Origin: Candidatus Fervidifonticultor tertius
GTDB lineage: Bacteria > Sysuimicrobiota > Sysuimicrobiia > Sysuimicrobiales > Humicultoraceae
Length of the DNA: 64,000 nt
Assembly (NCBI GenBank): GCA_031459235.1
Contig: JAVKIY010000001.1
Coordinates: 56,708 to 120,707 of the forward strand
Direction: 5' to 3'
Below are positions 4,634-45,227 of this stretch, piece by piece; the stretch's first letter is position 1; each line of letters opens with the position of its first letter. Both the position numbers and the translations under genes were made by a program. Below the pieces are notes generated by a model. It had not been told where the DNA came from and did no database searches. It saw only the letters and a list, made by a program, of their open reading frames with translations.

Positions 4634-5070
4634 TGGAGATCACGCACATCCTGATCGCGCTCGACGGCTCCGAGCTGGGCCGCAGGGCCATGGAGGCCGG
4701 CATCGACGTGGCGCTCCGCTACCGGGCCCGGGCGACCGTCCTCACCGCGATTCAGCATCCGGCCTACGCCGCCACGGTGGGCGAGGTCGAGGAGGCCGAT
4801 GCGGAGCAGCGAGCCTTCGCGGAGCGAGTGCAGCGCGAGGCCGTCGAGGCCGCGCGGATGCGCGGCTTGGACGTGGCGACGGCAATCGTATCCGGCCACC
4901 CGGCCGAGGCGATCGTGGACTACGCGCGCCAGCACGCCGTGGACCTGATCGTCATGGGGCACCGCGGGCTGTCGAACCTGCGGCGGTTCCTGATCGGCAG
5001 CGTCACCGACCGGGTGGTGGACCACGCGCCCTGCATGGTCCTGGTCGTAACCGAGCGCCGGCCGCGGTGA
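4633..5070 (+). CDS. universal stress protein (UspA family)
   Basis: 146 aa, MEITHILIALDGSELGRRA...VDLIVMGHRGLSNLRRFLIGSVTDRVVDHAPCMVLVV; translationally coupled to the antiporter. Confidence 0.75.
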   Translation: MEITHILIALDGSELGRRAMEAGIDVALRYRARATVLTAIQHPAYAATVGEVEEADAEQRAFAERVQREAVEAARMRGLDVATAIVSGHPAEAIVDYARQHAVDLIVMGHRGLSNLRRFLIGSVTDRVVDHAPCMVLVVTERRPR

Positions 5071-6260
5071 GCAGGGCATCAGGGCGCCCCCCGGCTCCCG
5101 CGCCGCGCGCCGCGCTGCGATTCGTCGTGCTGCTTGGCGTCGTCAGCCTCTTCGCTGATGCGACCTACGAGGGCGCCCGCAGCATCACGGGGCCCTACCT
5201 GGGCCTGCTCGGCGCGAGCGCCGCGACCGTCGGCGTCGTCGCCGGGCTCGGCGAACTCATCGGGTACGGGCTGCGCCTGGCCTCCGGATACCTGGCCGAT
5301 CGCACCCGGCGCTACTGGGCGATCACGATCGTCGGGTACGCCGTCAACCTGGGCGCGGTGCCGCTGCTTGCGCTGGCCGGGCACTGGCCGATCGCCGCGG
5401 CGCTGATCGTGGCCGAGCGCGTGGGCAAGGCGCTGCGGACCCCGGCGCGCGACGCGATGCTGTCGCACGCCACGCAGCAGATGGGCCGCGGCTGGGGCTT
5501 CGGCGTCCACGAAGCGCTCGACCAGGTGGGGGCGGTGCTCGGCCCGCTCGTCGTGGCGGGCGTCGTCCTGACCCGCTCGTCGTACCGGCTGGGGTTCGCG
5601 GTGCTGGCGATTCCCGCGGCGCTGGCCCTGGCCGTGCTGGTCGTCGCGCGGTTCCTCTCCCCCCGCCCCCGTGACCTCGAGACCGCTGCGCCGCGCCTCG
5701 AGGCCGCCGGGCTGCGCCGACCGTTCTGGGTCTACCTGGCCGGCATGGCACTGGTCGGCGCCGGCTACGCGGACTTCCCGTTGATCGCGTTCCACCTGGG
5801 CCAGCGGGCCGTGGCGCCGGCCGCGGCTATCCCGGTGCTCTACGCCGTGGCCATGGGCGTGGACGCGCTCGCGGCGCTGATCTTCGGCCGCCTTTTCGAC
5901 CGTCACGGGCTGCCCGTGCTGACGGTCGCCGTGCTCGTCTCCGCGCTCTTCGCGCCCCTGGTGTTTCTCGGCGGGTTCGCGGCCGCGGCCGCGGGCATGG
6001 TGCTGTGGGGCGTGGGCATGGGCGCGCAGGAGTCCATCATGCGCGCCGCGGTCGCCGGGATGGCGCCGCCCGACCGGCGCGGCGCCGCCTACGGCATCTT
6101 CAACACCGGCTACGGCCTCTGCTGGTTCCTCGGGAGCGCCGCGATGGGCCTGCTGTACGGCGTCTCGACTTCCGGGCTGGTGCTCTTCTCGGTGGCGGCG
6201 CAGCTCGCCGCGATTCCACTGCTCCTGTGGGTCGGCCGCGTTATGCGGGGCGCCCGCTAG
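5067..6260 (+). CDS. MFS transporter
   Basis: About 12 TM helices, two 6-TM halves, MFS loop motif (GYLADRTRRY); GTG start overlapping uspA stop (GTGA). Confidence 0.65.
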   Translation: MSRASGRPPAPAPRAALRFVVLLGVVSLFADATYEGARSITGPYLGLLGASAATVGVVAGLGELIGYGLRLASGYLADRTRRYWAITIVGYAVNLGAVPLLALAGHWPIAAALIVAERVGKALRTPARDAMLSHATQQMGRGWGFGVHEALDQVGAVLGPLVVAGVVLTRSSYRLGFAVLAIPAALALAVLVVARFLSPRPRDLETAAPRLEAAGLRRPFWVYLAGMALVGAGYADFPLIAFHLGQRAVAPAAAIPVLYAVAMGVDALAALIFGRLFDRHGLPVLTVAVLVSALFAPLVFLGGFAAAAAGMVLWGVGMGAQESIMRAAVAGMAPPDRRGAAYGIFNTGYGLCWFLGSAAMGLLYGVSTSGLVLFSVAAQLAAIPLLLWVGRVMRGAR

Positions 6261-6997
6261 CCCTGCGCCCTCCACACCATCCCCGGCGCGCCGACGAACT
6301 TGTAGACGACGCGTGTCCACGACGCGGCCTCTGCCTCGGTGATCTTCTCGTGGTGGAAGCGGTAGTCGTGCTTGCGCCAGAACTCGGCGAGGCCCTGGGT
6401 CAGCGTCTCCATCAACCCGCGCTCGGTGCGGACCAGCCACTCGAGGCTGTCGGGGTCGTCGGCCGACGCGGTGACCGCGATGAGGTGGGGAAAGCACAGC
6501 CCCAGACTGGCCTCGTAGCGGGCGCGGAAGTCGGCGTCGTCCAGGGCCCCGGCCGTCGCCGCGACGTTGCGGTCCTCGGCCTCCCACTGGCTCTGGCAGG
6601 CCAGGCAGGGCCGGCGGCGTTCCAGCCACTGTCCGACCTCGCGCGCCAGGACCTCTTCGTTCTGCGGCCCGAACAGCGTCCGTCTTCTCCGCCCGGCCGC
6701 GACCGCGAGTCGGTGAGCGGCCATGGCGGAGAAGGCGTCGAGGAAGTCCTCGAGCAGGTGCCGGTAGACGATCGCGATCCCGGTGGCGCTGTCCCTGGCC
6801 CGGGTCAACTGCCACGCATGGGTCGAGCAGAACCCGCGCGCGGCGATGAGGTCGGTGCGGGTCCACGGGTCGTTGACCCGCTCGTAGAGGAAGCCCCACA
6901 GGTATCGTTCCACGGTCTCCAGGCTGAGGTGGCAGATCGCGCAGTGGTCGGGGTGCAGCGCGCGGTAGATGCCGTGGAACAGCGCGTCACGCTGCAC
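6257..6997 (-). CDS. hypothetical protein with two tandem CxxC...C-x2-H putative zinc modules
   Basis: 246 aa; HCAICHL...FCSTHAW and CLACQSQ...CFPHLI arranged as an internal duplication; GTG start 15 bp after upstream gene; no family assignable from memory. Confidence 0.45.
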   Translation of the reverse strand: MQRDALFHGIYRALHPDHCAICHLSLETVERYLWGFLYERVNDPWTRTDLIAARGFCSTHAWQLTRARDSATGIAIVYRHLLEDFLDAFSAMAAHRLAVAAGRRRRTLFGPQNEEVLAREVGQWLERRRPCLACQSQWEAEDRNVAATAGALDDADFRARYEASLGLCFPHLIAVTASADDPDSLEWLVRTERGLMETLTQGLAEFWRKHDYRFHHEKITEAEAASWTRVVYKFVGAPGMVWRAQG

Positions 6998-7011
6998 GGT
7001 ACGATGCCCCG

Positions 7012-7443
7012 CTAGCCAGCGGCCCTGTCGCGGTGGCCCGCGCGCGCCTGGGCCGTGCCGCCATCCCCGTCGTCCAGACGGCGGAGTTCCTCACGCAGCC
7101 GGTCCCGTCGGGCTCGCTGGTCGGCGAGCGAGCGCTGGAACTGACGGTTGCTCGCTTCCAGCCCGGTCACGTTCAGCCGCAGCGAGCGGATGGCCTCGTC
7201 GGCGATGTACGCTCGGTGACGCAGCACCGCGAGCTCGGCCCTGGCGGCGCTCCACTCATTGTGCGCCGCATCAGGGCCCATGGAGGACACGGTCATCCGA
7301 TCTGCGCCGTAGGCCAGCAGGATCTTGACGCCCTCCTCGACCGTCCAGCCTTTCTCTTCGACGAGCGCCCGGAACCGTTCGCGCAGGTGCTCGGGGACGG
7401 TCACCCTGACCCGCTCCAGCCTCGGGAAAACATAGTCGCTCAT
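7012..7443 (-). CDS. hypothetical protein, N-terminal ribbon-helix-helix-like domain plus C-terminal coiled coil
   Basis: 143 aa; VRVTVPEHLRERFRALVEEKGWTVEEGVKILL has beta-strand/helix/helix RHH pattern; heptad-rich C-terminus; ATG overlaps stop of upstream paralog (ATGA). Confidence 0.45.
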   Translation of the reverse strand: MSDYVFPRLERVRVTVPEHLRERFRALVEEKGWTVEEGVKILLAYGADRMTVSSMGPDAAHNEWSAARAELAVLRHRAYIADEAIRSLRLNVTGLEASNRQFQRSLADQRARRDRLREELRRLDDGDGGTAQARAGHRDRAAG

Positions 7444-7940
7444 CGCGGTCCCTCGCTCACCCCGAGCACACGTCGCAGCCACCCGACCACCCCCCTGTGG
7501 GTCGCGGCGTCCCCGGGGGACGGGCCTCCGCCGTTGCCCGCCCCCGAGGCCACCGCCAACCTTGCTGCGAGCGCAGCGTTCTCCTCCCGGAGGGGACGCA
7601 TGGCGCGGCGGTTGGCGTAGAGCTCGGCCCCAAGCTCGTGGACGGTCTGGCCCAGCTCGGCCATCACCTTCTCCGCGGCGATGGTCCGAGCCCTCATGGA
7701 CACCAGCAAGGCCTGCGCCTCCCGGCGTTTCAGCTCCTGCTTCCTCGCCTCGGCCTCGTCGGTCGTTTGGCCATCCAGAGCCTTCCACTCCGCCTCGTCG
7801 GCGACGAAGGCGTCGAGGCCGCGCTCGAGCAGCCACGCCATTGCATCCCGGACATCGGGACCGGCAGCGTCCATCGCGCGGCGTATGGCCCCCCAGTCCT
7901 CGTCCACGAGCTCGACCTCGATGACCCACGGCGCGGCCAC
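7440..7940 (-). CDS. hypothetical protein, paralog of 7012-7443 (RHH-like N-terminus plus coiled coil)
   Basis: 166 aa; VIEVELVDEDWGAIRRAMDAAGPDVRDAMAWLLERGL then long charged coiled coil; GTG start with GGGGGAG RBS. Confidence 0.45.
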   Translation of the reverse strand: MAAPWVIEVELVDEDWGAIRRAMDAAGPDVRDAMAWLLERGLDAFVADEAEWKALDGQTTDEAEARKQELKRREAQALLVSMRARTIAAEKVMAELGQTVHELGAELYANRRAMRPLREENAALAARLAVASGAGNGGGPSPGDAATHRGVVGWLRRVLGVSEGPR

Positions 7941-7966
7941 GGTCTTCTCCCCCCGAGAAGCAGAAA

Positions 7967-7994
7967 GCTCCTACCGGCACGAGCCAGTAGGAGC
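7967..7994 (-). promoter_or_regulatory. perfect 8 bp inverted repeat (GCTCCTAC-N12-GTAGGAGC) in the 5' leader of the RHH operon, followed by a U-rich run
   Basis: Read directly; lies between predicted promoter and the GTG at 7940; candidate operator or attenuator hairpin. Confidence 0.35.
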
Positions 7995-8056
7995 TATCAG
8001 CCTCGTCTCGCAAGGCGATTCGACGAGCTCCATCGCCTATGCAATTGTCTTGTCTC

Positions 8057-8085
8057 AAAGATACGCCGCGCCCCGCGCCCTGTCA
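8057..8085 (-). promoter_or_regulatory. sigma70-like promoter (-35 TTGACA, 17 bp spacer, -10 TATCTT) for the 7940-6257 operon
   Basis: Reverse complement of 8080-8085 is TTGACA and of 8057-8062 is TATCTT; locally lower-GC segment. Confidence 0.35.
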
Positions 8086-8340
8086 ATGCGCACGTCAAGT
8101 GTCCTGTGTACTCACATTCCACAGAGGACGCCCCTGCCTCTGCATGCTGAGGTAGTGCACGACCGTCTTGGTGATGCGGTCGCAGCCGGTATCGAGCACG
8201 GTAGACACCGACAACGCCCCGCCAACCGAGCTGCTCTGCGACGGCTCAAACCGGCACCTACGCGGCGCTCCCGATGCAACTCTTCGACTACGAACACGCG
8301 TGCCGGGTCCTTCACGCCGCCGATCACACAAGAAAGCGCC

Positions 8341-10059
8341 TCAGCCCACGGCGCGTGTGCGCATTGCGTCAGCGACCAGCGCCACCGGAACCGACCCGTA
8401 CGACAGCAACCGGTCGTGGAAGTCGCGGAGCACGAACCCCGGCTGCTGCGCAAGATCACGGCGCAGCGCATGGATGAGGTGTGTGCCCACCAGGTACATG
8501 AGCGCCGCGCCCGGGAACATACTGTTCTTCACGGCTTCCGCCCGCGCGGCCTCGGGCGACATACCGGCGCGGTCGCGGTAGGTGTCGGCGGCCCGCTCGA
8601 GCGTCCACTCGCCGCGGTGGAGCCGCACGTCGACGACCGCCCGCGCGGCCATACGCAGTCGTGAGTGGGCCTGCGCCAGTTGCTGCAGCGGGTCGAGGAA
8701 ACCGATCTCTTCCATAAGATCCGTCGCGTAGCACGCCCAGCCCTCGGCCATCGTCCCGCCGCAGAACATGGCGATCCGGCTCGCGCAGTCAACCGCCGCG
8801 ACCCGCCCGATGCGAGACCCGGCGCGGTGGTACGCATACCAGTTCTGCACGTGATGGCCCAGCGCGCCGTGGTGGATCACGTGATTGAGGGTGATCACGC
8901 CGTCGTTCGTCGCGCGCAGGCGGCGCAACTGCTCCGCGGGCGGCATGTCGGGGTCGATCGGTGTCACCAGGTAGTCCACCACGGCCATCCGGTCAAACGG
9001 CGCCGGCGCACGGTAGCACAGGAAGTAGAGCGACGGTGCGGCTTCGCGCGCCCAGCGCGGCTGGGGCACGTAGCGGATTGGGTAGTCGGGCCAAGTGACC
9101 AGTCCGTGCCGCTCGGCCTCTGCGCGGACGGCGTGCCAGACCTCCGTGTACCGCTCGTAGTAGCGGTCGGCGGGCGGGTGGCGGTCCGCGAGCGCGGCCA
9201 GGGCCTCGTGCCAGGACGCAAAGCCGAGCGCGGCCGCGCCTTCGCGCAGCCGCGCGTCCCACAGCGCCAGATGCTCCTCGCCGAGCGCCACCACGTCGTC
9301 GGCAGACATGTCAAGCCAGTGCCCGCGCCGAAGCAGCAACTCCAGCGCCTCAGCGCCGCACGCGTAGCCGTCGGTGGCACATGCCAGCAGTTCGTCCCGC
9401 AGGTATCCTTGCAGGCGGCGGAACGCCTGGGCGGCCGACGCTGCGGCGTCGCGAAACCGTGGGTGTGTGATACCCGCCTCGCGCGCAAGTATCTCGGCGC
9501 CGCGCTCGAAGAACGCCAGCGCGCCGTCGCACTCGCGGATGGCTCGCTCGGTCCAGGCCCGCGGCGCCCGGCGGACGGTCGAGGCCGCCTGCGCCAGAAA
9601 GCCAGGGATAGCGAACATGCGCATGACCGCGGCCTCAACCCGATCGCGTAGCGGTGCGAACGGCCGCAGGAACAGCGCCAGCACGCCGAAGACGGCCTCG
9701 CCGGTGTAGACGCAGGGATTGCCCAGGTGGAAGTGAGTCGAGCCGTACTCCCACCGCTGCACATCGAGGAACCCCTCGGCCAGCCGGCGATCGAGCGCCT
9801 CGGCTTCGGTCAGCGGCTCACGCGGCAGGCTGCAGAATCGTACCCGCAGGGTCTCGATTGCGCGCACGGTGTCGCCGGCCGCGGCCTCGGAGAAGTCGGG
9901 CAGCCGGTGGTCGTGGTCGTGCACGCCGATGAACGTCGCGTTGATGGGATACGTAGCGTAGTACCACGCGAAGAAGTCGTCAAGAGCCGTGGCGAGCGCC
10001 GGCGCACCGCACACAGCCGCTCCGTCCTTCGGTGTACGATGGCGGTCGAGGTCAGTCAT
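8341..10059 (-). CDS. DUF885 domain-containing protein
   Basis: 572 aa; length and N-terminal FFAWYYATYPINATFIGVHDHDHRL region recalled as DUF885-like; overlaps next gene start by 8 nt. Confidence 0.6.
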   Translation of the reverse strand: MTDLDRHRTPKDGAAVCGAPALATALDDFFAWYYATYPINATFIGVHDHDHRLPDFSEAAAGDTVRAIETLRVRFCSLPREPLTEAEALDRRLAEGFLDVQRWEYGSTHFHLGNPCVYTGEAVFGVLALFLRPFAPLRDRVEAAVMRMFAIPGFLAQAASTVRRAPRAWTERAIRECDGALAFFERGAEILAREAGITHPRFRDAAASAAQAFRRLQGYLRDELLACATDGYACGAEALELLLRRGHWLDMSADDVVALGEEHLALWDARLREGAAALGFASWHEALAALADRHPPADRYYERYTEVWHAVRAEAERHGLVTWPDYPIRYVPQPRWAREAAPSLYFLCYRAPAPFDRMAVVDYLVTPIDPDMPPAEQLRRLRATNDGVITLNHVIHHGALGHHVQNWYAYHRAGSRIGRVAAVDCASRIAMFCGGTMAEGWACYATDLMEEIGFLDPLQQLAQAHSRLRMAARAVVDVRLHRGEWTLERAADTYRDRAGMSPEAARAEAVKNSMFPGAALMYLVGTHLIHALRRDLAQQPGFVLRDFHDRLLSYGSVPVALVADAMRTRAVG

Positions 10060-11173
10060 CGAGGGGTAGCTCGATCCACCGCCGCCGGTGATGCGACCGC
10101 TCGACGGCGTTGATCACCTCCTGCACCCGGGCGCCGTCCTCGAAGTTCCCCTGATTGCGGCTCCCACCCTCGAGGATCTCGTCGATGAAGTCCCTGATCA
10201 GATTGGCGTAGAACAGTGACCGCCACGACTCGCGCGCGTGCCCGCCTGCCGGGTAGAAACGCTGGGGAATCTCAAGCGGCTTGAACTCGACGCTGTCCGG
10301 CGTCGCAACCCGAATCGTCTCGGCCACGCCAAACTCCTCAACCAGCCGGCAAATGATCGCACCCTTGCTGCCGTAAATGCGCGCCTCGACGCCGGGGTAG
10401 TTGCCGATCGTCACGAACGACGTCTGGATCGAGCCGAGCGCACCGTTGGCATACTCCACCAGGTGGATGTCGCCGTCGTCGATGTTCATGCGCATCATGC
10501 GGCCGGTGGCCCGCACCATACGCTCGGGAATGAAGTTCCGCATCGTGCCCACGGTGCGGGCGTACGGTGCGCCCATCCACCACATGCCAATGTCAATAAT
10601 CGGCGCGCCGTAGCCCTCAAGGGACGACGTCTGCAGCACCGACTGATCGGCCGTGTGGTCCACCTGACGCAGCGGCACCTGCGGATCGAGCCACTGCGAG
10701 TTCTGCTCGTAGCCGTTGAAGATGAAGGGCACCCCGACGAACCCGTCATCGATCAGGGACTTCGCGTACTGCACGCCCGGGCTGTAGCGAAAGGTGAATC
10801 CGAGCTTGGTCTTGAGTCCCTTGCGCGCGGCGAGGTCGGCGGCCCGGCGCGTGTCACGGAAGTCGTAGGCCACGGGCTTCTCACACAGCACGTGCTTGCC
10901 GGCCTCGAGCGCGGCCGTGGCCAGCTCGTAGTGCGTGTGCGACGGCGTCGCGACGTCGATCACGTCGATGTCTGGACGTGAGACCACGGCCTGCCAGTCG
11001 CTTGTCGTCTCGCTGATGCCGAACTCCCCGGCCATCGCGTCCGCGCGGTCGCGGACGACATCGCACAACGTGACGACCTCACAGCGTGGATCACGCTGCC
11101 AGCCTGGAATGTGCGCGTGCCGGGCCCAGGCGCCAGCCCCGAGCACCGCCACGCGTAGCCTGTGCTGTATCAT
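10052..11173 (-). CDS. Gfo/Idh/MocA family oxidoreductase
   Basis: 373 aa; N-terminal Rossmann LRVAVLGAGAWARHAHIPGW and EKP motif (HVLCEKPVA). Confidence 0.8.
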   Translation of the reverse strand: MIQHRLRVAVLGAGAWARHAHIPGWQRDPRCEVVTLCDVVRDRADAMAGEFGISETTSDWQAVVSRPDIDVIDVATPSHTHYELATAALEAGKHVLCEKPVAYDFRDTRRAADLAARKGLKTKLGFTFRYSPGVQYAKSLIDDGFVGVPFIFNGYEQNSQWLDPQVPLRQVDHTADQSVLQTSSLEGYGAPIIDIGMWWMGAPYARTVGTMRNFIPERMVRATGRMMRMNIDDGDIHLVEYANGALGSIQTSFVTIGNYPGVEARIYGSKGAIICRLVEEFGVAETIRVATPDSVEFKPLEIPQRFYPAGGHARESWRSLFYANLIRDFIDEILEGGSRNQGNFEDGARVQEVINAVERSHHRRRWIELPLDD

Positions 11174-11592
11174 GGTGCTGCCTCCTCGATCAGGACGCCG
11201 CGCGCGCCACGGGTTTGACGCGGTCGCTGCGCAGCGACCGAAGCAGGGCTTCGATCACACGAAGGTTCGCGACCGCGTCCGGTCAGCCCGCAGTCGATGG
11301 GGGCCACGCGCCCGCCCTCGAACTGCAGGGCCGCGCCCAGAACCCCGTCCACAAGCTGGGTAGCGGGACGTAAACCGTGCCGACCTCCAGATTGGCCGGC
11401 AGCGCATTGTAGGAGCCGCGGGCCCTGGGAATCCTCAGACGCGCCGCCGCATCCTGCGCCCGTATCGTCGAGCGGCAGGCGATCGCGACCAGGCGTCCGT
11501 TCGCCGAAGACTTGGATCGCGGGGATGACCGCGCGGACGGCGATGTTGGCAACGCTCAGGGCTTCCCAGCGCAGCTGCGCCATGTGCCCTCC
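11174..11592 (-). pseudogene. possible decayed remnant of the missing peptide ABC ATPase gene(s)
   Basis: No intact ORF; minus-strand frames give short ABC-ATPase-like snatches (MAQLRWEALSV...VRAV; ...NGRLVAIACRS resembling QRVAIARA) in different frames; sits where dppD/dppF normally follow the permeases. Confidence 0.2.
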
Positions 11593-34327: not shown

Positions 34328-35395
34328 CTACGGCATCTCGTTCGCCCCAAGCCAGCGCGTCCCCGGGTGATCCAGGTCCACCATCAGGTACGCCCAGTCG
34401 CCCGGCCGGACCGGGTAGTGGCGACCCACCATGTCGACGAGGCCCCGGAACGGCGCCCGCAGCTCCTCCAGCACCTCGAACGTGTAGGGGCTCCACACCC
34501 GGCCGAGGAGCGCACCCGCAGGCACCTCGCGCCTCATGAGGTCTTCTGGCGGGAACACGGGCTCCAGCATGCCGCCGCGCGTGGGGTTGATGCGCTGCAC
34601 GCGCTCGAAGATCATCACCCGGTCCGGCACCGGCGGTTGGCCCGGCAGAATCCCCAGGTATTGCAGGACGCCGTGCACGCCTCGCACGTTGGTCTGCAGC
34701 CACGCCTCCTCGAGCTCGGGGTCGAAGCCGGCGCCACCGACCTCGGAGGCGATTCCGGGGATGCCCAGCACCTGCCCCGCATAGCCAACCGCGCTGCGCG
34801 GACCCGGGAACCGGGTGGCGAAGTCGCTGCGCCGGATGTGCGGGAGGCCGAAGGCCCGCGCCATCTGGAAGGCGCGCTCGGATACCGTTGGGTCCTTATA
34901 GTCGCGGCCACAGGTCACCGAGCCCATGGCCGCACCCCACAGCCCGCAGTGGAAGTCCACGACCGCATCGGCGTGCGACAGCACGTGCGTCGTCACGGCC
35001 AGGGCCAGCTGGTCGGCGATCCACGCCTGCTCGGTCCCGAACGCGCGGTTCAGGTCAGGGCTGTCGGACTCGTCGCGCACGTTGCGCGTGAGCGTGGCGA
35101 GCGCGACCGGGTTGGCCACGGGCACGGCGAGGACGGCCCCGGCCATCGCTTTCGGATCGAGCGTGTCCACGATCCGGCGGACGATCTCGGCGGACAGCCA
35201 CTCGCTGCCGTGCTGAGCGGCGAGCAGCGCCAGGACCGGCCCCGGCGCGGCGCCGACCACGGCGTGGATGTGCAACGCGACCTCGCTCCCATCCAGATCG
35301 GTGAGCACAGGCACGGCCACGTGCGTGCGCTCGCCGCGCGGCATCGTCCGCTCGGCGATGCGGATCTCGCCTTTCGGGTCGCGGGCCCGCGTCAT
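34328..35395 (-). CDS. succinylglutamate desuccinylase/aspartoacylase family protein
   Basis: 355 aa; PGPVLALLAAQHGSEW...VANPVALAT...NLNRAF zinc-deacylase motifs; downstream copy of a tandem pair. Confidence 0.7.
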   Translation of the reverse strand: MTRARDPKGEIRIAERTMPRGERTHVAVPVLTDLDGSEVALHIHAVVGAAPGPVLALLAAQHGSEWLSAEIVRRIVDTLDPKAMAGAVLAVPVANPVALATLTRNVRDESDSPDLNRAFGTEQAWIADQLALAVTTHVLSHADAVVDFHCGLWGAAMGSVTCGRDYKDPTVSERAFQMARAFGLPHIRRSDFATRFPGPRSAVGYAGQVLGIPGIASEVGGAGFDPELEEAWLQTNVRGVHGVLQYLGILPGQPPVPDRVMIFERVQRINPTRGGMLEPVFPPEDLMRREVPAGALLGRVWSPYTFEVLEELRAPFRGLVDMVGRHYPVRPGDWAYLMVDLDHPGTRWLGANEMP

Positions 35396-36462
35396 CGAGG
35401 TGCTCCAATCGTTCGCGCGTTCTCGACCCAGCGCGCGGTCCCGTCCTCGGTGTTGGCGAGCCCGTAGGCCCAGTCGCCCGGGCGCACCGGGTAGTCGCGC
35501 GCCACGTAGAACAGCGCGCCCCTGACCGGCGCCCGCAGCTCCTCGAGCGTCTCGAAGGTATACGGGCTCACGACCTCACCCAGCAGCGTGCCCTTCTCGA
35601 CCTCGCGGCCCAGCGCGTCGCCGCCGAAGCGCGAGCGCAGGAACCCGCCCTTCGTCGGGTTGACCCGGTGCCCGGTCCGGTAGACGAGCTGCCGCGGGGG
35701 ACGCACGTCCGGGGTGCCGTCCAGCATGCCCAGCGCGCCCATGACCGCGCGAACGCCGTCCACCGTCATCTGCCGCCAGCGGTCCTCCAGGCGCCGGCCG
35801 AACCCCACGCCGCCCACCTCGACGCCCAGGGCCGGAATCCCGAGCACGCCGCCGGCGTATCCAATGGACGCGCGCGGGCCGGGAAATCCCCCCACCACGC
35901 TGGCGCGCCTGATGATGGGTAAACCGAAGGCCAGCGCCAGACGCTCGGTCTCGTCCGCGAGACCCGGCCGCGGGAAGTCGTCGCCGACGAGGATGTCGAG
36001 GAACGCCGAGCCCCAGGGCCCCATGTGGAAGTCCATCAGGCAGGTCGCGTGCGCGAGCACCTCGCGCACGATGGTGCCGACGAGCTGGTCGCTCGTCCAC
36101 GTGTGGACACCGGGAAAGATGCGGTTCATGTCGGGACTGTCGGATTCGTCCGGCATGTTCCGGGTCTGCAGCCGCAGTGCCGGCGGATTCGCCACGGGCA
36201 CAGCGAGCACGGCCCCGCGCAGGCCCTCCGGGTCGAGGCCGGTGACGACCTGCCGGACGACATCCACGGAGAACCACTCTCCGCCGTGGAGCGTGGACAG
36301 CAGGGCCAGGACGGGGCCGGGCGCGCGCCCACGCACCGCGTGTACCCACAGCGCGAGCTCGGCGCCGTTCAGCCCGGTCGTCACGGGGAGGCGAATCGCG
36401 GCTCGCTCGCCCGGCGCGACGGCGTGCCCACCGATGGTCATCTCCTGGTTGGTTGACAGCAC
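35392..36462 (-). CDS. succinylglutamate desuccinylase/aspartoacylase family protein (tandem paralog)
   Basis: 356 aa, roughly half identical to the neighbour by eye; stop/start overlap (ATGA). Confidence 0.7.
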   Translation of the reverse strand: MLSTNQEMTIGGHAVAPGERAAIRLPVTTGLNGAELALWVHAVRGRAPGPVLALLSTLHGGEWFSVDVVRQVVTGLDPEGLRGAVLAVPVANPPALRLQTRNMPDESDSPDMNRIFPGVHTWTSDQLVGTIVREVLAHATCLMDFHMGPWGSAFLDILVGDDFPRPGLADETERLALAFGLPIIRRASVVGGFPGPRASIGYAGGVLGIPALGVEVGGVGFGRRLEDRWRQMTVDGVRAVMGALGMLDGTPDVRPPRQLVYRTGHRVNPTKGGFLRSRFGGDALGREVEKGTLLGEVVSPYTFETLEELRAPVRGALFYVARDYPVRPGDWAYGLANTEDGTARWVENARTIGAPR

Positions 36463-36656: not shown

Positions 36657-37976
36657 TCACCTACCCGCCCGTCGGGTCGTTGCGGATGAGCGAGCCCCGG
36701 GCGCCGCGGCGCGGCCGCGGCCGGCGGGTCCCGGCTGCTGCCAGTGCCAGACGCTGGAGATCGGCAGCGCATAGAGGTTTGCGCCGAAGGGCACCGCCTG
36801 GGACCCGAGGTAGAGCAACGTGCCACGCAGGAACCGCCGCCCGGCAATTTCGGCCAGAATGCGCAGGCCGCGAAAGTCATCCGCATCGACAGAGACGGCC
36901 GCTTTGACCTCCACACCGACAATCTCGCCGGACGGTGCCTCCAGCACGACGTCCACGTCCTCCCCCTTTGCCGTCCGCAGGTGGTACAGCGTGGGCTGGG
37001 TCGTGCTCCAGCCTGCCTGTTTCATCAACTCCATCGCCAGGAACGTCTCGACGAACGGGCCCCACAGTTCCGGGTGTGTCGGCAGGGCCCGACTGTCCAC
37101 CCCGGCGAGATGCCCGGCCAGACCCGTATCGACGACCAGAATCTTGGGAGACCTCAGCAGCCGCTTGCGCACCTTCGCGGTCCATGCTGGCAGCAGGTGC
37201 ACGAGAAACGTCGCCTGCAGCAGCGCCAGATACCGCTGCAAGGTGGTCTGCGGAATCCCAAGTGTCCGCGAGAGGTCGGCCACGTTGAGCAGGGTCCCCG
37301 TCCTCGCCGCTAGCACGCTCAACAGCCTCGGGATCTCGTGGAGGCGCTCGATGTCGACGATGTCGCGAACCGTGCGCTGGAGGATGGTCGTGACGTACGC
37401 TCGGAACCATGCCGGTCGACGGGCAGTCGAGCGTCGGACCGCCTCCGGATAGCCACCCGCTGCGATCCTGCCCGCAAGTTCGTCGCGATCGAGGGTGGTG
37501 GCGGACGGCAGGACCAGCGCCCGCGCAAACACCCGGTCGATGAACTCCTCGACCGCTCCAGCGATCTCGCCTTGAGACAGCGGCCACAGCCTCAGGACCT
37601 CCATGCGACCGGCGAGCGACTCCGACAGTTTCGGCAGCAGGAGAACGTTGGCCGATCCGGTGAGCAGGAACCGGCCCGGCCGGCGGTCACGATCGACGGC
37701 GGCCTTGATCGGGAGGAACAACTCCGGCACCCGCTGGACCTCATCGATCACCGCCGGTCCCTTGAGCCCGCTGATGAAGCCTGCGGGGTCGCTCCGTGCC
37801 GCGGCGAGCACCGTGGCGTCATCAAGCGTCAGATAGCGTGCGGGATGCTGCGCGGAGGTAATCTCCTGTGCCAGTGTGCTCTTGCCGACCTGGCGGGCGC
37901 CGTGGAGCAGGACGACAGGCGTGTCGCCGAGCGCGGCAAGGAGCGGTGTCGTGAGATGTCGCCGAAACACACCCAC
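36657..37976 (-). CDS. ATP-binding protein, AAA domain plus DUF4143 (COG1373)
   Basis: 439 aa; LLHGARQVGKSTL Walker A, VIDEVQRVP Walker B, C-terminal DUF4143-like region. Confidence 0.7.
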   Translation of the reverse strand: MGVFRRHLTTPLLAALGDTPVVLLHGARQVGKSTLAQEITSAQHPARYLTLDDATVLAAARSDPAGFISGLKGPAVIDEVQRVPELFLPIKAAVDRDRRPGRFLLTGSANVLLLPKLSESLAGRMEVLRLWPLSQGEIAGAVEEFIDRVFARALVLPSATTLDRDELAGRIAAGGYPEAVRRSTARRPAWFRAYVTTILQRTVRDIVDIERLHEIPRLLSVLAARTGTLLNVADLSRTLGIPQTTLQRYLALLQATFLVHLLPAWTAKVRKRLLRSPKILVVDTGLAGHLAGVDSRALPTHPELWGPFVETFLAMELMKQAGWSTTQPTLYHLRTAKGEDVDVVLEAPSGEIVGVEVKAAVSVDADDFRGLRILAEIAGRRFLRGTLLYLGSQAVPFGANLYALPISSVWHWQQPGPAGRGRAAAPGARSSATTRRAGR

Positions 37977-38697: not shown

Positions 38698-38727
38698 ATT
38701 ATAGGGACGGACCGGAGAGAGTGTCAA
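38698..38727 (-). promoter_or_regulatory. perfect-consensus sigma70 promoter for tRNA-Leu (TTGACA, 18 bp, TATAAT)
   Basis: Reverse complement of 38722-38727 is TTGACA and of 38698-38703 is TATAAT; about 50 nt upstream of the mature 5' end. Confidence 0.55.
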
Positions 38728-39298: not shown

Positions 39299-39517
39299 CT
39301 AGCGGACGAACACGAGCAGCCCGCCGGTGATCACGAAGAGCACAGCGACGCCCGCGGTGACGCGGGTCATCAGCGTCTCGCGCGGCCGCGGGCCGTGGAA
39401 CATGCGCGCGCTCCCGCCGATGGCCCCGAGGCCCTCGCCCTTCGGCCCCTGGAGCAGGATGACCCCGATCAGCGCGAGTGAGACGACGATGTGCACGATC
39501 AGGACGATCTCGTTCAC
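39299..39517 (-). CDS. secG: preprotein translocase subunit SecG
   Basis: 72 aa from GTG 39517 (RBS GGAGGG); IVLIVHIVVSLALIGVILLQGPKGEGLG...GG...LTRVTAGVAVLFVI matches SecG. Confidence 0.75.
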   Translation of the reverse strand: MNEIVLIVHIVVSLALIGVILLQGPKGEGLGAIGGSARMFHGPRPRETLMTRVTAGVAVLFVITGGLLVFVR

Positions 39518-39676
39518 GGCGGCACCCTCCGGAGCGCGTAGCCGGCGCGGTCGCGCGCCGGCCACGTGACAACATCTAAGGTTAGCACGAAATCTCCGCC
39601 GCCGCCAGACACGCTGCGGCGCTGGTGGATCTGTTTCGCCTCGAGCGGCGCGGTAGGCGGATCCGTTGTAAGCGGA

Positions 39677-40786
39677 CTACTCGACGCCCTCCGCGGTCTC
39701 CCGGACGAGCTGGTCCACGACGTCGTGCAGGTTCCCGGTTCGCCGGAAGGTGTCGAGTTGCCGGTCGGCGCTCGACCCTTCCTCGAGGATGCGCAGCGCG
39801 TAGGCCACCTCGCGGCGGCTGCCGAGCTCGTCCACCACGTCGTCTACGAACCACTCGACCAGCTCGCGAACCAGGTCGCGGGCGGGCAGCTCCTCGCGCC
39901 GGCCGAAGTCGATGAGCCGGCCATCCAGCCCGTAACGCACCGCGCGCCACTTGTTCTCCTCGATGAGCTCGGCCGGGTAGACGCGGAACGTCAGGTTGTC
40001 GCGCCGGAGCTTCCAGCATTTCGCGACGATCGCCTGGAAGAGCGCGGCCACGCAGACGGCCTCGTCCACCCGCGTGCAGACGTCGCAGATGCGGAACTCA
40101 AGCGTCGGGTAGTTCCAGTTGGGCCGCGCGTCCCACCAGATCTTGGTGCCGTCGGGGATGCTGCGGGTGCGGGCCAGCACCTCCACCATCGAGGCGTAGT
40201 CGGCCCACGACTGGAACACACGCGGGATGCCGGTGCGCGGGAAGTTGCGGAAGATGATGCTCCGGTACGACTTGAGCCCGGTGTTGCGCCCCATCCAGAA
40301 CGGGCTGCTGGTGGACAGGCAGAGCACGTGCGGCAGCAGGTAGCGGGCCACGTTCATCGCGTCGATCAGGAACTCGCGGTCCTCGATGCCGATGTGCACG
40401 TGGGTGCCGAAGATCAGGAGCTGCTGGGCGAGCTCCTGCATGTCCTCCTTCACGCCCAGGTAGCGCTCGTAGGGCGTGATCTCCTGGGTGAGCCAGGACG
40501 AGAAGGGGTGCGTGCCGGCGGCCGCGATCGCCAGGCCGTTGCGGCTTGCGGCGCGGCGGATCTCACGGCGCAGCCGCACCAGCTCCCCCCGGGCCTCCGC
40601 GGCGGTGCGGCACACGCGCGTGCCGATCTCGACGATCGACTGGTGGAGTTCGGGCTTCACCTGCTCGCGGAGCGCGATCGAGTCGCCCTGGAGAATCTCG
40701 GTGATGTAGCTCCGCAGCTCGCGCGTCTGCGGGTCGATGATCTGGTACTCTTCCTCGATGCCGATGGTCAGCGACGGGGGCTCCAC
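39677..40786 (-). CDS. carboxylate-amine ligase, glutamate-cysteine ligase family 2 (YbdK-like)
   Basis: 369 aa; LTIGIEEEYQIIDP start and GTHVHIGI motif typical of GCS2. Confidence 0.75.
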   Translation of the reverse strand: MEPPSLTIGIEEEYQIIDPQTRELRSYITEILQGDSIALREQVKPELHQSIVEIGTRVCRTAAEARGELVRLRREIRRAASRNGLAIAAAGTHPFSSWLTQEITPYERYLGVKEDMQELAQQLLIFGTHVHIGIEDREFLIDAMNVARYLLPHVLCLSTSSPFWMGRNTGLKSYRSIIFRNFPRTGIPRVFQSWADYASMVEVLARTRSIPDGTKIWWDARPNWNYPTLEFRICDVCTRVDEAVCVAALFQAIVAKCWKLRRDNLTFRVYPAELIEENKWRAVRYGLDGRLIDFGRREELPARDLVRELVEWFVDDVVDELGSRREVAYALRILEEGSSADRQLDTFRRTGNLHDVVDQLVRETAEGVE

Positions 40787-40790
40787 GGCC

Positions 40791-42140
40791 CTAGCGCGCC
40801 TCCACGACGAACGTCGCGGTCGTCGAGCCGCCGCCGGCGGTGACGTTGAGCAGCGGGGCGGTGGACAGCCGGGTCATGCACCCGTCGACGTACTCGCCGG
40901 CGTAGACGTAGGGGTTGGTGTCCAGCATCCGGTCCAGGAGCCGCAGGCGGCCGTCCACCAGGCTGGGGTAGGGTTCCCGCGGTACGGCCACGCGCTCCTG
41001 CACGACGGCCCCTTCGGCCATCGCCGCCAACACCGCCCGCTCCCAGTCGCCCGGAGCGGTCTCCCATCCGAGCACCACGCCCTTCCCGCCGTACTCGTCA
41101 TCGGGCTTCACCACGAAGCGCTCGCGCCGCTCCAGCACGAACGGGATGAGGTCCACCGGCCGTCCCGCGTACGTGGTCGCGCGCTCCTCCAGCCGCCGGG
41201 TCCACGGCACGTGCGCGGCGATGGCGCGGCGCTCCTCCGCGTCGAACACCCCGGCGTTGCGCTCGTCGGAGAGCACGGCCAGGCTCGCCTTCTTGTGGAG
41301 GATCTTGCAGCGAAAGGGGTTGACCATGCAGGCGGCGCCGTCGCGGACCGCGCGGATCACCGGGTGGTCCGCCCCGCCGCGCTCGACCAGCTCGCCGAGG
41401 AGCACGCGCTTGTAGATCAGGTCGGCGGGCCGGCCCTCGACGACGAGGCGGCCGTCGCGATACTCGGCGGTCCGCGGGTCGCCGATGAAGCTGTCCAGAC
41501 CCGCTGCGCGGAAGTACTCGTCGAAGAGCACGAACTCGCTGTAGGTGGGCACCTCGCGCCAGTCGAGGATGACGATGCGGGGCGCGCGGCCCGCTCCGGC
41601 CCACCGCCGGTAGGCGTCGAGCAGCGCGTGCAGCAGGTGGGGCCGCCCGGGCAGCGGCCGCACGTCGAAGCGCCGCAGGAACGCGCGCATGACCGGCAGG
41701 GTGTAGAAGATCTCGGCCAGCGCGTCGGCGTAGGCAATCGCGGCCGGCGTCTCCGCGTTGTACTCGGTGAGCGCCAGCACCCCGTCCGGCGCCAGGAAGC
41801 CGTCGAGCCGCGCGGTCGGACTCGGCGCGGGGAAGCCCGGGTCGGTGGCCAGGAGCGCCTCCTCCCACTCACGCAGGCCGAACTGCCGCCGGAACGCCGG
41901 GTCGGCCATCGCCGCCTCGTGGGCCCGGGCCAGGGCGCGCAAGAGCGGGCGCAGCCCGGTGCGCATGGCCCGGTACTGCTCGACCGTGAGGAACCGGGGG
42001 CGCAGCACCGTGCACAGCGCGCGCTCGCCGAAGAACAGACCGCGCCGCCGCAGGGCGTCGTCCAGCGCGGCCTGTGAGGCGGCCGCGAGATCGTCGGTCA
42101 GGAGGTCGTGGTAGACCGCGACGGCGTCGCCGGGGGACAC
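40791..42140 (-). CDS. circularly permuted ATP-grasp type 2 protein
   Basis: 449 aa; architecture and motifs (LTEYNAETPAAIAY, VVKPDDEYGGKGVVLG, NPYVYAGEYVDG) recalled for the CP-ATP-grasp_2 family; 5 bp from the GCS2 gene. Confidence 0.65.
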   Translation of the reverse strand: MSPGDAVAVYHDLLTDDLAAASQAALDDALRRRGLFFGERALCTVLRPRFLTVEQYRAMRTGLRPLLRALARAHEAAMADPAFRRQFGLREWEEALLATDPGFPAPSPTARLDGFLAPDGVLALTEYNAETPAAIAYADALAEIFYTLPVMRAFLRRFDVRPLPGRPHLLHALLDAYRRWAGAGRAPRIVILDWREVPTYSEFVLFDEYFRAAGLDSFIGDPRTAEYRDGRLVVEGRPADLIYKRVLLGELVERGGADHPVIRAVRDGAACMVNPFRCKILHKKASLAVLSDERNAGVFDAEERRAIAAHVPWTRRLEERATTYAGRPVDLIPFVLERRERFVVKPDDEYGGKGVVLGWETAPGDWERAVLAAMAEGAVVQERVAVPREPYPSLVDGRLRLLDRMLDTNPYVYAGEYVDGCMTRLSTAPLLNVTAGGGSTTATFVVEAR

Positions 42141-42155
42141 GATGCCCCCGGGATT

Positions 42156-42932
42156 CTAAGGCGCCCCGGAAGAGTCCTTCGTGGCGACCGCCCAGACGAT
42201 GCGCGCGAACGCGTCGGCATCGAGGCTGGCGCCGCCCACGAGCGCACCGTCCACCTCGGGCTGCGCGGCAAACTCGCCGATCGTCTCTGGGGTCACGCTG
42301 CCGCCGTAGAGGATGCGGATCGCCTCGGCCGCCTCGCCGAACCACTCGCGGAGCCAGCCCCGCAGCAGCCCGGCCACGCGTCCGGCCTCGGCGCCAGTGG
42401 CGGGCCTTCCGGTTCCGATGGCCCACACCGGCTCATAGGCGATGACGAGCTGGCCGGCCTGGTCGGGCGGCACGTCGAGCGTCGCGATACGGACCTGCGT
42501 CTGCACGACCCGCTCGGTGCGGCCGCCGTCGCGCTCCTCCAGCGACTCGCCCACGCACAGGATGGGGATAAGCTCGTGCGCGAGCGCGGCGGCTACCTTG
42601 CGGCGCACGGTCTCGTCGTCCTCGCCGAGCAGGTGCCGTCGCTCGGAGTGGCCCACGATCACGTACGTGCAGCCCAGGTCCCACAGCATGGGCGCGGAGA
42701 TCTCACCCGTGAACGCGCCGTGGGACTCCCAGTGGACGTCCTGCGCGCCGAGCTCGATCGGCGAGCCGGCCAGCGTGCGGCCGACCTCGGCCAGCGCGGT
42801 GAAGGGCGGGCAGACGACGACGTCGGCACCGTCCGCGGCCGCCAGCCGGTCGCGCACCCCGGCCGCCAGGTCGTGCGCCTCGCGCACAGTCGTGTGCATC
42901 TTCCAGTTCCCGGCCACCAGCCGTGTCCGCAT
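42156..42932 (-). CDS. tpiA: triose-phosphate isomerase
   Basis: 258 aa; AGNWKMH, VGHSERR, AYEPVWAIGTG. Confidence 0.9.
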   Translation of the reverse strand: MRTRLVAGNWKMHTTVREAHDLAAGVRDRLAAADGADVVVCPPFTALAEVGRTLAGSPIELGAQDVHWESHGAFTGEISAPMLWDLGCTYVIVGHSERRHLLGEDDETVRRKVAAALAHELIPILCVGESLEERDGGRTERVVQTQVRIATLDVPPDQAGQLVIAYEPVWAIGTGRPATGAEAGRVAGLLRGWLREWFGEAAEAIRILYGGSVTPETIGEFAAQPEVDGALVGGASLDADAFARIVWAVATKDSSGAP

Positions 42933-42952
42933 GCGCCCTCCGCGCTCGTCTC

Positions 42953-44137
42953 TCAGACGTCCTGCAGGACCGCCACGCCGGGCAGCTCGCGTCCCTCGAG
43001 GAACTCGAGCGACGCGCCGCCCCCGGTGGAGATGTGCGTCATCCGGTCCGCCAGGCCGAACTCTTCGACGGCCGCGGCGGTGTCTCCGCCACCCACGACC
43101 GTGACCGCGGACGACGCCGCCATCGCCTCGGCGACCGCGCGCGTGCCGGCGGCGAAGGCCGGCACCTCGAAGACCCCCATCGGGCCGTTCCACAGCACGG
43201 TGCCCGCGCGCGCGATGACCGCGGCGAACGCGGCGGCGGTCCGGGGACCGATGTCCACGCCTCGCATGTGCGCGGGGATCGCATCGGCGGGGACCACCTG
43301 CGCGTCCGCGCCCCCGGCGGGGTCGGTCGTGACCACCACGTCGTGGGGTAGCTCGAACGCCACCCCGCGCGCCGCGGCCGTGGCCAGGAACTCCCCGGCC
43401 ATCGGCAGGTGCTCTGGGTCCAGGATCGAGCCGCCGATCTCGTAGCCCCGCGCGCGCAGGAACGTGTAGGCCATGCCGCCGCCGACGAGCAGCGCGTCGG
43501 CGCGGGTGAGCAGGTTGCGGATCACCGCGATCTTGTCCGAGACCTTCTTCCCGCCCAAGATCGCCACGAACGGCCGCGCCGGCGCGTCCAGCGCCCGTCC
43601 GAGGTACGCCAGCTCCTTCTCCATCAGGAAGCCGGCCACCGCCGGCAGGTACGCGGCCACACCCGCGGTCGAGGCGTGCGCGCGGTGGGCCGTGCCGAAG
43701 GCGTCGTTCACGTAGAGGTCGGCCAGGCGCGCGAGCCGGCGCGCAAAAGCCGGGTCGTTCGCCTCCTCCTCCGGGTGGAAGCGCAGGTTCTCGAGCAGCA
43801 CCACGCTCCCGGGGGCGAGCGCGGCCACCGCCGCCTCCACCTCGGGGCCCACGCAGTCCGGCAGCAGCGGGACCGGCCGGCCGAGCAGCGCGCCGAGGCG
43901 CGCGGCCACCGGCGCCAGGCTCAGCGCCGGGTCGGGCTTCCCGCCCGGCCGCCCCAGGTGCGAGCAGAGCACGGCGGTGACGCCGTGCTCGAGCAGGTAG
44001 CGGATCGTCGGCAGAGCCTCGCGGATGCGGCGGTCGTCGCCGACGGCGCCGTCCTCCATCGGCACGTTGAAGTCGACGCGCACGAGCGCGCGCCGACCGC
44101 GCAGGTCGACGTCCCGGATCGTCTTCTTGGCCCTCAT
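42953..44137 (-). CDS. pgk: phosphoglycerate kinase
   Basis: 394 aa; [26 protein letters not shown]. Confidence 0.95.
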
Positions 44138-44219: not shown

Positions 44220-45227
44220 CTAACCGCGTTCCGCCATGTAGTGCACCAGATCGGCCACGCGGCACGCGTAACCCCACTCGTTGTCGTACCAGGTCATGAC
44301 CTTGGCCAGGCCGTCGATCACCTGCGTGAGCGGGCCGTCCACCACACCGGACCGCGGATCGCCCTTGAAATCCATCGAGACGAGCGGCGCCTCGCTGTAG
44401 CCCAGGTAGCCCTTCATCTCGCCCTCGGCCGCCTCCTTGAAGGCGGCGTTGAGCTCCTCGGCCGTCGCCGTCTTCTCCAGGTCCACCGTGAGGTCCACGA
44501 TGGACACCGTGGGGGTCGGCACGCGCAGCGCGATGCCCGTGAGCTTGCCGCGGAGCTCCGGAAGCACCAGGAAGATGGCGCGCGCGGCGCCGGTGCTGGC
44601 CGGGATGATGTTGAGCGCCGCGGCGCGCGCCTCGCGCAGGTCGTCGCTCACCACGTCGAGGATGCGCTGGGTGTTCGTGTACGAGTGGACGGTCGTCATG
44701 TGTCCGCGCCGGATGCCGAACCGCCGGCTCAGCACCTTCGCGGTGACCGAGAGACCGTTGGTCGTGCAGGACCCGTTGCTCACGATCACGTGGCGCGCGG
44801 GGTCGTAGTGCTCGTGGTTGACCCCCATGTTCAGCGTGATGTCCTCGCCCTTGGCCGGCGCGCTGATGACGACCTTCTGCGCGCCCCCCTGGAGATGCCC
44901 CTTCGCCTTCTCCGCCGCGGTGAACCGGCCGGTGGACTCGACGACGATTTCGGCACCGGCCTTCCCCCACGGGATGGCGGCCGGGTCGCGCTCCGCGAAC
45001 ACCATGATCTCGCGCCCGTCCACGACCAGCCGGCCGTCGCTGGTTCCCACCGTACCGGGATACGCGCCGTAGTTCGAGTCATGGGCGAACAGGTGGGCGT
45101 TGGTCTGGAGATCGGCGATGTCGTTGATCGCGGTGACCTCGATCGCCCCGGGATAGCGCTGGCGCATCGCCCGCAGCGTTAGGCGGCCGATGCGGCCGAA
45201 CCCGTTGATGCCGACCCGCACGGACAT
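44220..45227 (-). CDS. gap: type I glyceraldehyde-3-phosphate dehydrogenase
   Basis: 335 aa; [17 protein letters not shown] active-site Cys. Confidence 0.95.

Follow-up and report, generated by a model that had tools for sequence, protein, structure and literature searches.

We analysed a 64,000-nt window of the genome of Candidatus Fervidifonticultor tertius (contig JAVKIY010000001.1, positions 56,708 to 120,707), whose genus belongs to the phylum Ca. Sysuimicrobiota, and focused on two adjacent open reading frames (ORFs) that encode putative ATP-dependent amide ligases. The upstream ORF encodes an ATP-grasp-like protein, hereafter called grasp, and the downstream one a carboxylate-amine ligase of the GCS2 family, hereafter called GCS2. 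A first-pass annotation had placed both between tpi and secG, co-directional with the glycolytic genes; the sequence and the Pfam and NCBIfam searches agreed with these positions and supported the gene order gap, pgk, tpi, grasp, GCS2, secG (Table 1). The same annotation set the two genes 5 bp apart. They are indeed adjacent, but this figure is the difference between their coordinates, and the true spacer measures 4 nt. Such a spacer is consistent with translational coupling, and grasp and GCS2 are probably co-transcribed as a module.

Table 1. Features of the grasp-GCS2 locus, in order of transcription (positions in the window).
Feature	Position	Strand	Basis or remark
gap (glyceraldehyde-3-phosphate dehydrogenase)	44220-45227	minus	Pfam Gp_dh_N and Gp_dh_C; first listed gene of the co-directional run
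pgk (phosphoglycerate kinase)	42953-44137	minus	Pfam PGK, E 1.3e-157
tpi (triosephosphate isomerase)	42156-42932, start approximate	minus	Pfam TIM, residues 92-334 of a long ORF
Spacer of 15 nt, tpi stop (42156) to grasp GTG (42140)	42141-42155	minus	Sequence; has a GGGGG run
grasp, ATP-grasp-like gene, 449 aa	40791-42140	minus	GTG start, TAG stop (40791-40793)
grasp motif R111-x-D113 ... E126-Y-N128 (ARLDGF...LTEYNAETP)	41757-41810	minus	Invariant columns in the grasp family
grasp glycine-rich loop K345-P-D-D-E349-Y-G-G-K-G354	41079-41108	minus	hhalign to human glutathione synthetase (GS); aligned to 3n6x 'VVKEVQGSGGYG'
Spacer of 4 nt, grasp stop to GCS2 start	40787-40790	minus	Sequence
GCS2, YbdK-type carboxylate-amine ligase gene, 369 aa	39677-40786	minus	GTG start 40786-40784
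GCS2 GhExE signature G9-I-E-E-E13, part of the Mg/ATP site	40748-40762	minus	Invariant across 16 homologues (alignment A3)
secG	39299-39565, start uncertain	minus	Pfam SecG and TIGR00810; 72-aa homologue in locus L161

The window has a GC content of about 70%, and long spurious ORFs are common in it. Given the strong profile scores of GCS2 and the many homologues of grasp, both ORFs are nonetheless genuine genes and not chance ORFs of a GC-rich genome. The GC content of the pair (0.68-0.74) is the same as that of its flanks, and there is no sign of a recent foreign origin. The scan for promoter-like sites found none in the stretch of the pair, including the 15-nt spacer between tpi and grasp, and the only terminator-like match within the pair was one weak 5-bp stem inside grasp (42040-42053), which we dropped because such matches are as frequent as chance predicts. 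About 111 nt separate the GCS2 stop (39677) from the secG ORF (39565). Upstream of the pair, the long tpi ORF (42156-43193) runs into pgk and overlaps it; the tpi of a related locus, L002, spans 42177-42932 of the window by tblastn, and the tpi homologue of L161 is 258 aa long.

Profile searches assigned GCS2 unequivocally. The protein matched PF04107 (200.9 bits against a cutoff of 21, E 3.6e-59) and the equivalog model NF010039 (PRK13515, 'carboxylate-amine ligase'; 534.8 bits against a cutoff of 371), and its score of 224 bits with the YbdK model NF010040 remained under the cutoff of 425. Furthermore, a profile of its subfamily (A3, 16 members including the window GCS2) matched the structures of YbdK at E 1.1e-48 (1r8g) and 6e-48 (1tt4). 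The GhExE signature, which defines part of the Mg/ATP site of carboxylate-amine ligases (PMC2588565), is intact. By its sequence, the window protein is thus unambiguously a YbdK-type GCS2 carboxylate-amine ligase, as the first-pass annotation had proposed, and it falls in the NF010039 subfamily. It shares family and GhExE site with E. coli YbdK (1r8g) but differs from it in subfamily, NF010039 as opposed to NF010040, and it is only for the NF010039 subfamily that the link to grasp is established. Members of the GCS2 superfamily phosphorylate a carboxylate, usually the gamma-carboxylate of glutamate, and then ligate an amine to it (PMC2588565).

The assignment of grasp was less direct. It had been called a circularly permuted ATP-grasp protein of type 2 (CP_ATPgrasp_2, PF14403), a name that does not hold for the window protein alone, which scores 20.1 bits (E 3.5e-4), under the gathering score of 32, but that holds at the level of the family, since all 20 aligned homologues match PF14403 (best E 3.8e-10). 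PF04174 was matched by 15 of these homologues and PF03738 by 13, the latter weakly (E >= 1e-4). The window protein itself gave no match to any NCBIfam model or to PF03738 and carries no extra domain in its 449 aa. With PF03738 matched weakly in 13 of the 20 homologues and NCBIfam silent, grasp does not turn out to be a standard glutathionylspermidine-synthase-like enzyme. The family is large: it numbers over 6,550 homologues at E <= 1e-3 and, at 50% identity, 968 clusters at E <= 1e-30 or 3,030 at E <= 1e-10. Its profile matched the structure 3n6x (E 3e-7) and, weakly, E. coli YjfC, and no match of grasp homologues to the eukaryotic GS families PF03917 and PF03199 was found in Pfam even at E <= 10. 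On these profile comparisons, we regard grasp as a distinct family on the edge of PF14403, without a Pfam or NCBIfam model of its own. One cluster representative, P0239 (990 aa), appears to carry an AMP-binding domain (residues 8-495) fused to a full-length grasp domain (534-980). This AMP-binding domain is an acyl-CoA-synthetase-like adenylation domain; with it, the grasp family would have a carboxylate-activating partner of a third type.

An AlphaFold2 model of grasp was obtained with moderate confidence (predicted local distance difference test, pLDDT, 68.8; predicted template modelling score, pTM, 0.68). The top matches of this model among PDB structures by Foldseek were 8fbz, 2hgs, 5oes, 3kal and 1m0w, that is, human, potato and yeast GS and soybean homoglutathione synthetase, and these eukaryote-type enzymes aligned over essentially the whole length (E 2e-12 to 2e-7, template modelling score 0.49-0.63, about 440-497 columns). 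They were followed by 3n6x (E 3e-11), the fungal Cp1B (9cjn, E 2e-10), YgiC/YjfC, glutathionylspermidine synthetase (GspS) and trypanothione synthetase. The model is collinear with 3n6x and the eukaryotic GS (407-497 aligned columns, E about 1e-11), while the bacterial non-permuted GshB (1gsa) aligned only in part (278 columns, E 2.6e-4). The model therefore places grasp in the fold group of GspS, permuted ATP-grasp proteins and eukaryotic GS, with a permuted ATP-grasp topology.

The motifs R-x-D, E-x-N, KK and KPxxE-GG are invariant in the grasp family. The region of the first two aligns with 'LLEYNADTP' of YjfC and 'LEDNLRTP' of 3n6x, and R111, D113, E126 and N128 match the residues R139, D141, E163 and N165 of Cp1B. 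Mutation of these four abolished or strongly reduced the activity of Cp1B, and they were assigned to the formation of the acyl phosphate (PMC12568646). Because its invariant residues match this catalytic set, grasp is predicted to be catalytically active. An hhalign comparison with human GS, using a query identical to the sequence of 2hgs, paired residues 333-355 of grasp with residues 352-374 of the human enzyme (the KPQREGGGNN segment), so that K345-P-x-x-E349-x-G-G stands opposite K364-P-x-x-E368-G-G-G. This alignment has a probability of 1.8% and covers 23 columns, the glycine-rich loop alone. A kinship with eukaryotic GS at the level of sequence was rejected, this loop excepted, since both Pfam at E <= 10 and hhalign failed to find it.

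We then examined whether the two genes are kept together. In a forward test, one genome per species was scanned with the grasp profile, which gave at least 573 confirmed matches; the best 80 loci were used, of which 67 extended 1.3 kb or more downstream and were informative. GCS2 was located no more than 400 nt downstream of grasp on the same strand in 56 of these 67 loci (84%). The carriers were labelled as Armatimonadota or Sysuimicrobiota, Gemmatimonadota, Chloroflexota (Ktedonobacteria, Anaerolineae and Thermomicrobiales) and Planctomycetota (Gemmataceae and Gemmatales), and their proteins shared 57-73% (grasp) and 64-83% (GCS2) identity with those of the window. In a reverse test, metagenomes were scanned with the GCS2 profile and loci with at least 2.5 kb on both sides were retained. 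A grasp gene lay nearby in all 18 loci with a GCS2 at least 66% identical to that of the window, and in 7 of 13 more distant ones. Overall, the two genes are kept together in at least five bacterial phyla. Distant loci showed the orders GCS2-third ATP-grasp-grasp, grasp-177 aa-GCS2 and grasp-GCS2-GCS2, with grasp identity down to 36-45%. Since the linkage survives such rearrangements of gene order, these results are good evidence of a functional tie between grasp and GCS2.

Several loci depart from the simple pair. Two tandem GCS2 paralogues, which share about 48-52% and 58-60% identity with the GCS2 of the window, occur in some distant loci (L133, 4880-7110; L135, 72-2296; L139, 1456-3677), directly after grasp in L133 and L139. 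In L150 (5368-5901) and L154 (5435-5971), a conserved protein of about 177 aa without Pfam or PADLOC match is encoded between grasp and GCS2, and an S1-PDZ protease gene lies upstream. L054 (4634-10758) has two tandem copies of the grasp-GCS2 unit (4634-7112 and 7653-10758) separated by S9-peptidase fragments; they stem from either a true duplication or an error in the assembly. A protein of 692 aa (P0172) that resembled a grasp-GCS2 'Rosetta-stone' fusion was rejected, as its middle 230 residues or so are out-of-frame and rich in Arg, Ala and Pro, a frameshift artefact of two neighbouring genes.

All ORFs of the best 80 loci were clustered to find conserved neighbours. Outside the window clade, the pair is mostly the core of a larger same-strand cluster, usually in the order esterase, 315-aa ATP-grasp, grasp, GCS2, followed by a C26 peptidase, one or more ATP-grasps of the L-amino-acid-ligase (LAL) type or an S9 peptidase; examples among L007-L160 are L081 (2172-6541), L096 (1256-7845) and L083 (2745-9470). 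The 315-aa protein (cluster c2) is encoded directly upstream of grasp in 55 of 62 informative loci and is a classical ATP-grasp ligase, and so a third ligase, whose profile matches Ddl and biotin carboxylase-type domains (E 1e-8). Upstream of it, in about 49 loci by ORF clustering, lies a gene for a serine esterase of about 240 aa (c5; PF00756, GASFG motif). The genes downstream vary with the lineage: a C26 gamma-glutamyl-hydrolase-like peptidase (c6; PF07722, E 8e-60), whose best NCBIfam match is the gamma-glutamyl-GABA (gamma-aminobutyric acid) hydrolase PuuD, mainly in Gemmatimonadota, and an S9 peptidase (c10) in Ktedonobacteria. One or two LAL-like ATP-grasps (c8) are found downstream or upstream in Anaerolineae and Gemmatimonadales, and an S8 subtilase with a glycogen-binding CBM48 domain (c13) upstream in Anaerolineales. 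In distant versions of the cluster, a gene for an S1-PDZ protease, for an M29 aminopeptidase or for an O-methyltransferase is present in addition.

The first-pass annotation had stressed that the partner of grasp is a second, unrelated ligase in place of the usual alpha-E and transglutaminase-like proteins. No alpha-E, transglutaminase or NTN-hydrolase/Anbu protein was found beside the window pair or among the annotated conserved neighbour clusters of the 160 loci, a search that covers these clusters and not a Pfam scan of every ORF. GCS2 is therefore confirmed as the partner and the usual ones are missing from these clusters, but a system of two genes is not what most lineages have, as they add a third ligase, an esterase and peptidases. 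Furthermore, a search of the 160 loci for a conserved small ORF (25-110 aa) that could encode a precursor peptide yielded nothing but artefacts of antisense or overlapping frames and an unrelated Trm112-like gene, and PADLOC returned no defence-system match for the pair or its partners. These two negative results argue against a role of the pair in defence or in making a ribosomally synthesised and post-translationally modified peptide.

In the 64-kb window, tblastn found neither the third ATP-grasp nor the esterase, the C26 peptidase, the LAL-type ATP-grasp, the S9 peptidase or the S8 subtilase. The closest relatives, L001-L003 (71-73% identity), likewise have no third ATP-grasp beside the pair. 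The arrangement gap-pgk-tpi-grasp-GCS2-secG recurs in L161, with a grasp 92% identical to that of the window, and in L002 (Ca. Fervidifonticultor sextus), where a Crp/Fnr-family regulator gene (10582-11280) that is absent from the window and L161 separates GCS2 from secG. The tpi-secG position is thus real, but, shared as it is by the window, L161 and L002, it is a clade-specific site for a minimal version with two ligases and not a feature of the system itself. The pair would ride on the gap-pgk-tpi transcript, which would tie its expression to the glycolytic operon and suggests constitutive expression at a housekeeping level. In L082, a close metagenomic relative, the third ATP-grasp gene upstream of the pair (222-1219) is broken into two reading frames (222-758 and 467-1219), possibly as a pseudogene or through a sequencing error, and this state fits the loss of the gene in the window clade.

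Taken together, the reading that we favour, at somewhat better than even odds, is that grasp and GCS2 are two unrelated ATP-dependent amide ligases that act successively and make, independently of the ribosome and of any nonribosomal peptide synthetase (NRPS), a small peptide or amide. By analogy with characterised relatives, GCS2 would phosphorylate a carboxylate, for which the gamma-carboxylate of glutamate is the likeliest candidate, and join it to an amine or amino acid. In turn, grasp would convert a second carboxylate to an acyl phosphate, to which a further amino acid or amine would then be joined. The product would most likely be a gamma-glutamyl-type peptide or amide; here we infer the two-step synthesis, the order of the steps, the substrates and the nature of the product alike. 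In most other lineages, the third, classical ATP-grasp and the hydrolases (the esterase, the gamma-glutamyl-hydrolase-like C26 and the S9, S8, S1-PDZ or M29 peptidases) would extend the product or turn it over, whereas only the two-ligase core is present locally in the window clade. Operons that combine an ATP-grasp with a COOH-NH2 ligase are an established signature of successive peptide ligations, including those of glutathione (PMC4431377), and Cp1B with Cp1D is a proven example in which an ATP-grasp of the GS fold acts first and an ATP-dependent amide ligase unrelated to it acts next (PMC12568646).

Several observations weigh against this successive-ligase reading. The structural model of grasp is of moderate confidence only, and its C-terminal loop (408-440) is poorly modelled. 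Joint encoding is not obligatory, as 11 of the 67 informative grasp loci have no adjacent GCS2. Endo- and exopeptidases from many unrelated folds recur among the relatives, and a substrate that is a peptide or a protein would account for them no less well than a small metabolite. In addition, E. coli YbdK reportedly has only weak gamma-Glu-Cys ligase activity (Lehmann et al. in 2004), and we know of no identified substrate of YgiC or YjfC.

Several known systems come close to the pair. The E-64 pathway, in which Cp1B and then the amide bond synthetase Cp1D act, also uses two unrelated ATP-dependent ligases to form successive amide bonds on a small acid, and Cp1B resembles grasp in fold (E 2e-10) and in its R/D/E/N catalytic residues (PMC12568646). 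It differs in being fungal, in drawing its second enzyme from another superfamily and in having a warhead-making oxygenase, an enzyme that is absent here. With the GspS family (YgiC/YjfC, 7uk6 and 7uk8; GspS, 2io7), grasp shares weak PF03738 matches, the nearly identical motif 'EYNA[ED]TP' and structural matches at E 5e-7 to 1e-5. However, it lacks the CHAP amidase domain of GspS, scores under threshold and has a different conserved partner in GCS2. PF14403 proteins of type 2 such as 3n6x, from the predicted peptide system with alpha-E, transglutaminase and Anbu, represent the nearest Pfam family, and 3n6x is matched both in profile (E 3e-7) and in fold (E 3e-11), but the window grasp stays under the threshold of this family and its partner is a non-permuted YbdK-type ligase.

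The kinship with PF14403 also bears on the alternative that the ligases work on a peptide or protein, which they would modify or tag, for instance with amino acids attached at the C-terminus or at a side chain, and that the peptidases process or remove this modification, in the manner of RimK, of the tubulin-tyrosine-ligase family or of the role predicted for other permuted ATP-grasp systems. PF14403, the nearest Pfam family of grasp, is said in its Pfam description, after Iyer et al. 2009, to have a predicted role in a peptide synthesis or modification system. In the relatives, the core is linked to genes for an S8 subtilase, an S9 oligopeptidase, an HtrA-like S1-PDZ protease, an M29 aminopeptidase and a C26 peptidase, and an identity of 57-83% across phyla would fit a conserved macromolecular substrate. 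Conversely, the cluster comes with neither a conserved small ORF nor a gene for a candidate target, no peptidase is adjacent to the pair in the window clade, and the closest experimentally characterised structural relatives of grasp all act on small molecules. We consider such a tagging function unlikely, though it deserves to be taken seriously.

The likeness of grasp to eukaryotic GS, which extends to a full-length alignment with the R-x-D, E-x-N and KPxxE-GG motifs at equivalent positions, raises the further alternative of a non-canonical gshA/gshB analogue. GCS2 would make gamma-glutamylcysteine or gamma-Glu-X, and grasp would add a third residue to yield glutathione or a glutathione-like thiol. 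In the glutathione pathway, too, a COOH-NH2 ligase (GshA, the gamma-Glu-Cys ligase, for which some GCS2-type enzymes also serve) is combined with an ATP-grasp ligase (GS, of which the permuted eukaryote-type enzymes 2hgs, 5oes and 3kal come closest). The best structural matches of grasp are full-length glutathione and homoglutathione synthetases, its glycine-rich loop aligns with K364-N373 of human GS, and neighbouring GCS2 subfamilies are named glutamate--cysteine ligase in NCBIfam. The relatives encode a C26 peptidase resembling gamma-glutamyl hydrolase and an esterase of PF00756, a family that also contains S-formylglutathione hydrolases. Adjacent GshA-like and GshB-like genes, a synteny that the present pair resembles, are an accepted basis for predicting glutathione synthesis (PMC7278568), and several phyla, such as Planctomycetes, have no documented or predicted thiol (PMC6282198).

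The same comparison weakens this gshA/gshB reading at several points. The window grasp is outside the GS sequence families by both Pfam and hhalign, 3n6x, Cp1B and GspS-like proteins match it structurally almost as well, and its motifs are nearer to those of YjfC/GspS ('EYNAETP' against 'EYNADTP'). Gemmatimonadetes are already predicted to make bacillithiol (PMC6282198). The third ligase of most lineages would be superfluous for a tripeptide pathway, and neither it nor the peptidases of the relatives belong to the glutathione pathway. We therefore regard as distinctly improbable both a gshA/gshB analogue and its more specific form, an undescribed gamma-glutamyl peptide cofactor. In that form, a glutathione-like low-molecular-weight thiol would be made through the permuted GS fold of grasp, with the third ATP-grasp in most lineages, and would be used by Chloroflexota, Gemmatimonadota, Sysuimicrobiota/'Armatimonadota' and some Planctomycetota.

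The match of the C26 neighbour to PuuD would fit a catabolic or salvage route for amines or amino acids of the Puu kind, in which GCS2 gamma-glutamylates an amine and the C26 hydrolase later removes the glutamate; GCS2 does belong to the same ligase superfamily as gamma-glutamyl-amine ligases (PMC2588565). Such a route has little to recommend it, since the conserved neighbours include no oxidase or aldehyde dehydrogenase, one or two extra ATP-consuming ligases would make no sense in catabolism, and the window clade lacks the C26 gene. Finally, a chance adjacency of two genes with independent functions, which the grasp loci without GCS2 and some distant GCS2 loci without grasp could suggest, is effectively refuted by the conservation analysis, with adjacency in 84% of informative loci across several phyla, a linkage that outlasts changes of order and a 4-nt spacer that favours coupling, and we give it almost no credence.

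Linked amidoligases that synthesise peptides without ribosomes are a known kind of system, and chained amide-ligase operons are a recognised route to cofactors, storage peptides and antibiotics without NRPSs, so the existence of such a module would not surprise a specialist. Full-text literature searches, outside which the likeliest survey (Iyer et al. 2009) lay, returned no description of this pair or cluster, and the combination of grasp with an NF010039-type GCS2, usually with a third ATP-grasp and hydrolases, is not described in the searchable literature. The module is widespread, with at least 573 confirmed genome matches and about 970 clusters at 50% identity, and unusually conserved (57-83% identity between phyla), and its carriers belong mainly to poorly studied soil and hot-spring phyla. 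Identification of its product would give a function to two large protein families. This product could prove to be a metabolite that is both new and common, perhaps a redox cofactor, and the pair could serve as a minimal two-enzyme system for the biocatalytic synthesis of peptides or amides.

Two other features of the window lie downstream of the pair on the minus strand. Two tandem genes of the AstE/AspA family (succinylglutamate desuccinylase/aspartoacylase-like; 34328-35395 and 35392-36462), adjoined by an AAA_14/DUF4143 ATPase gene (36657-37976), lie 3-5 kb downstream; they were considered as possible hydrolases of the product and were dropped, as they are not syntenic in L161 or L002. In addition, a perfect 12/12 sigma-70 consensus (TTGACA, 18 nt, TATAAT) is present at 38698-38727 in this genome of 70% GC, downstream of secG and a 125-aa gene.

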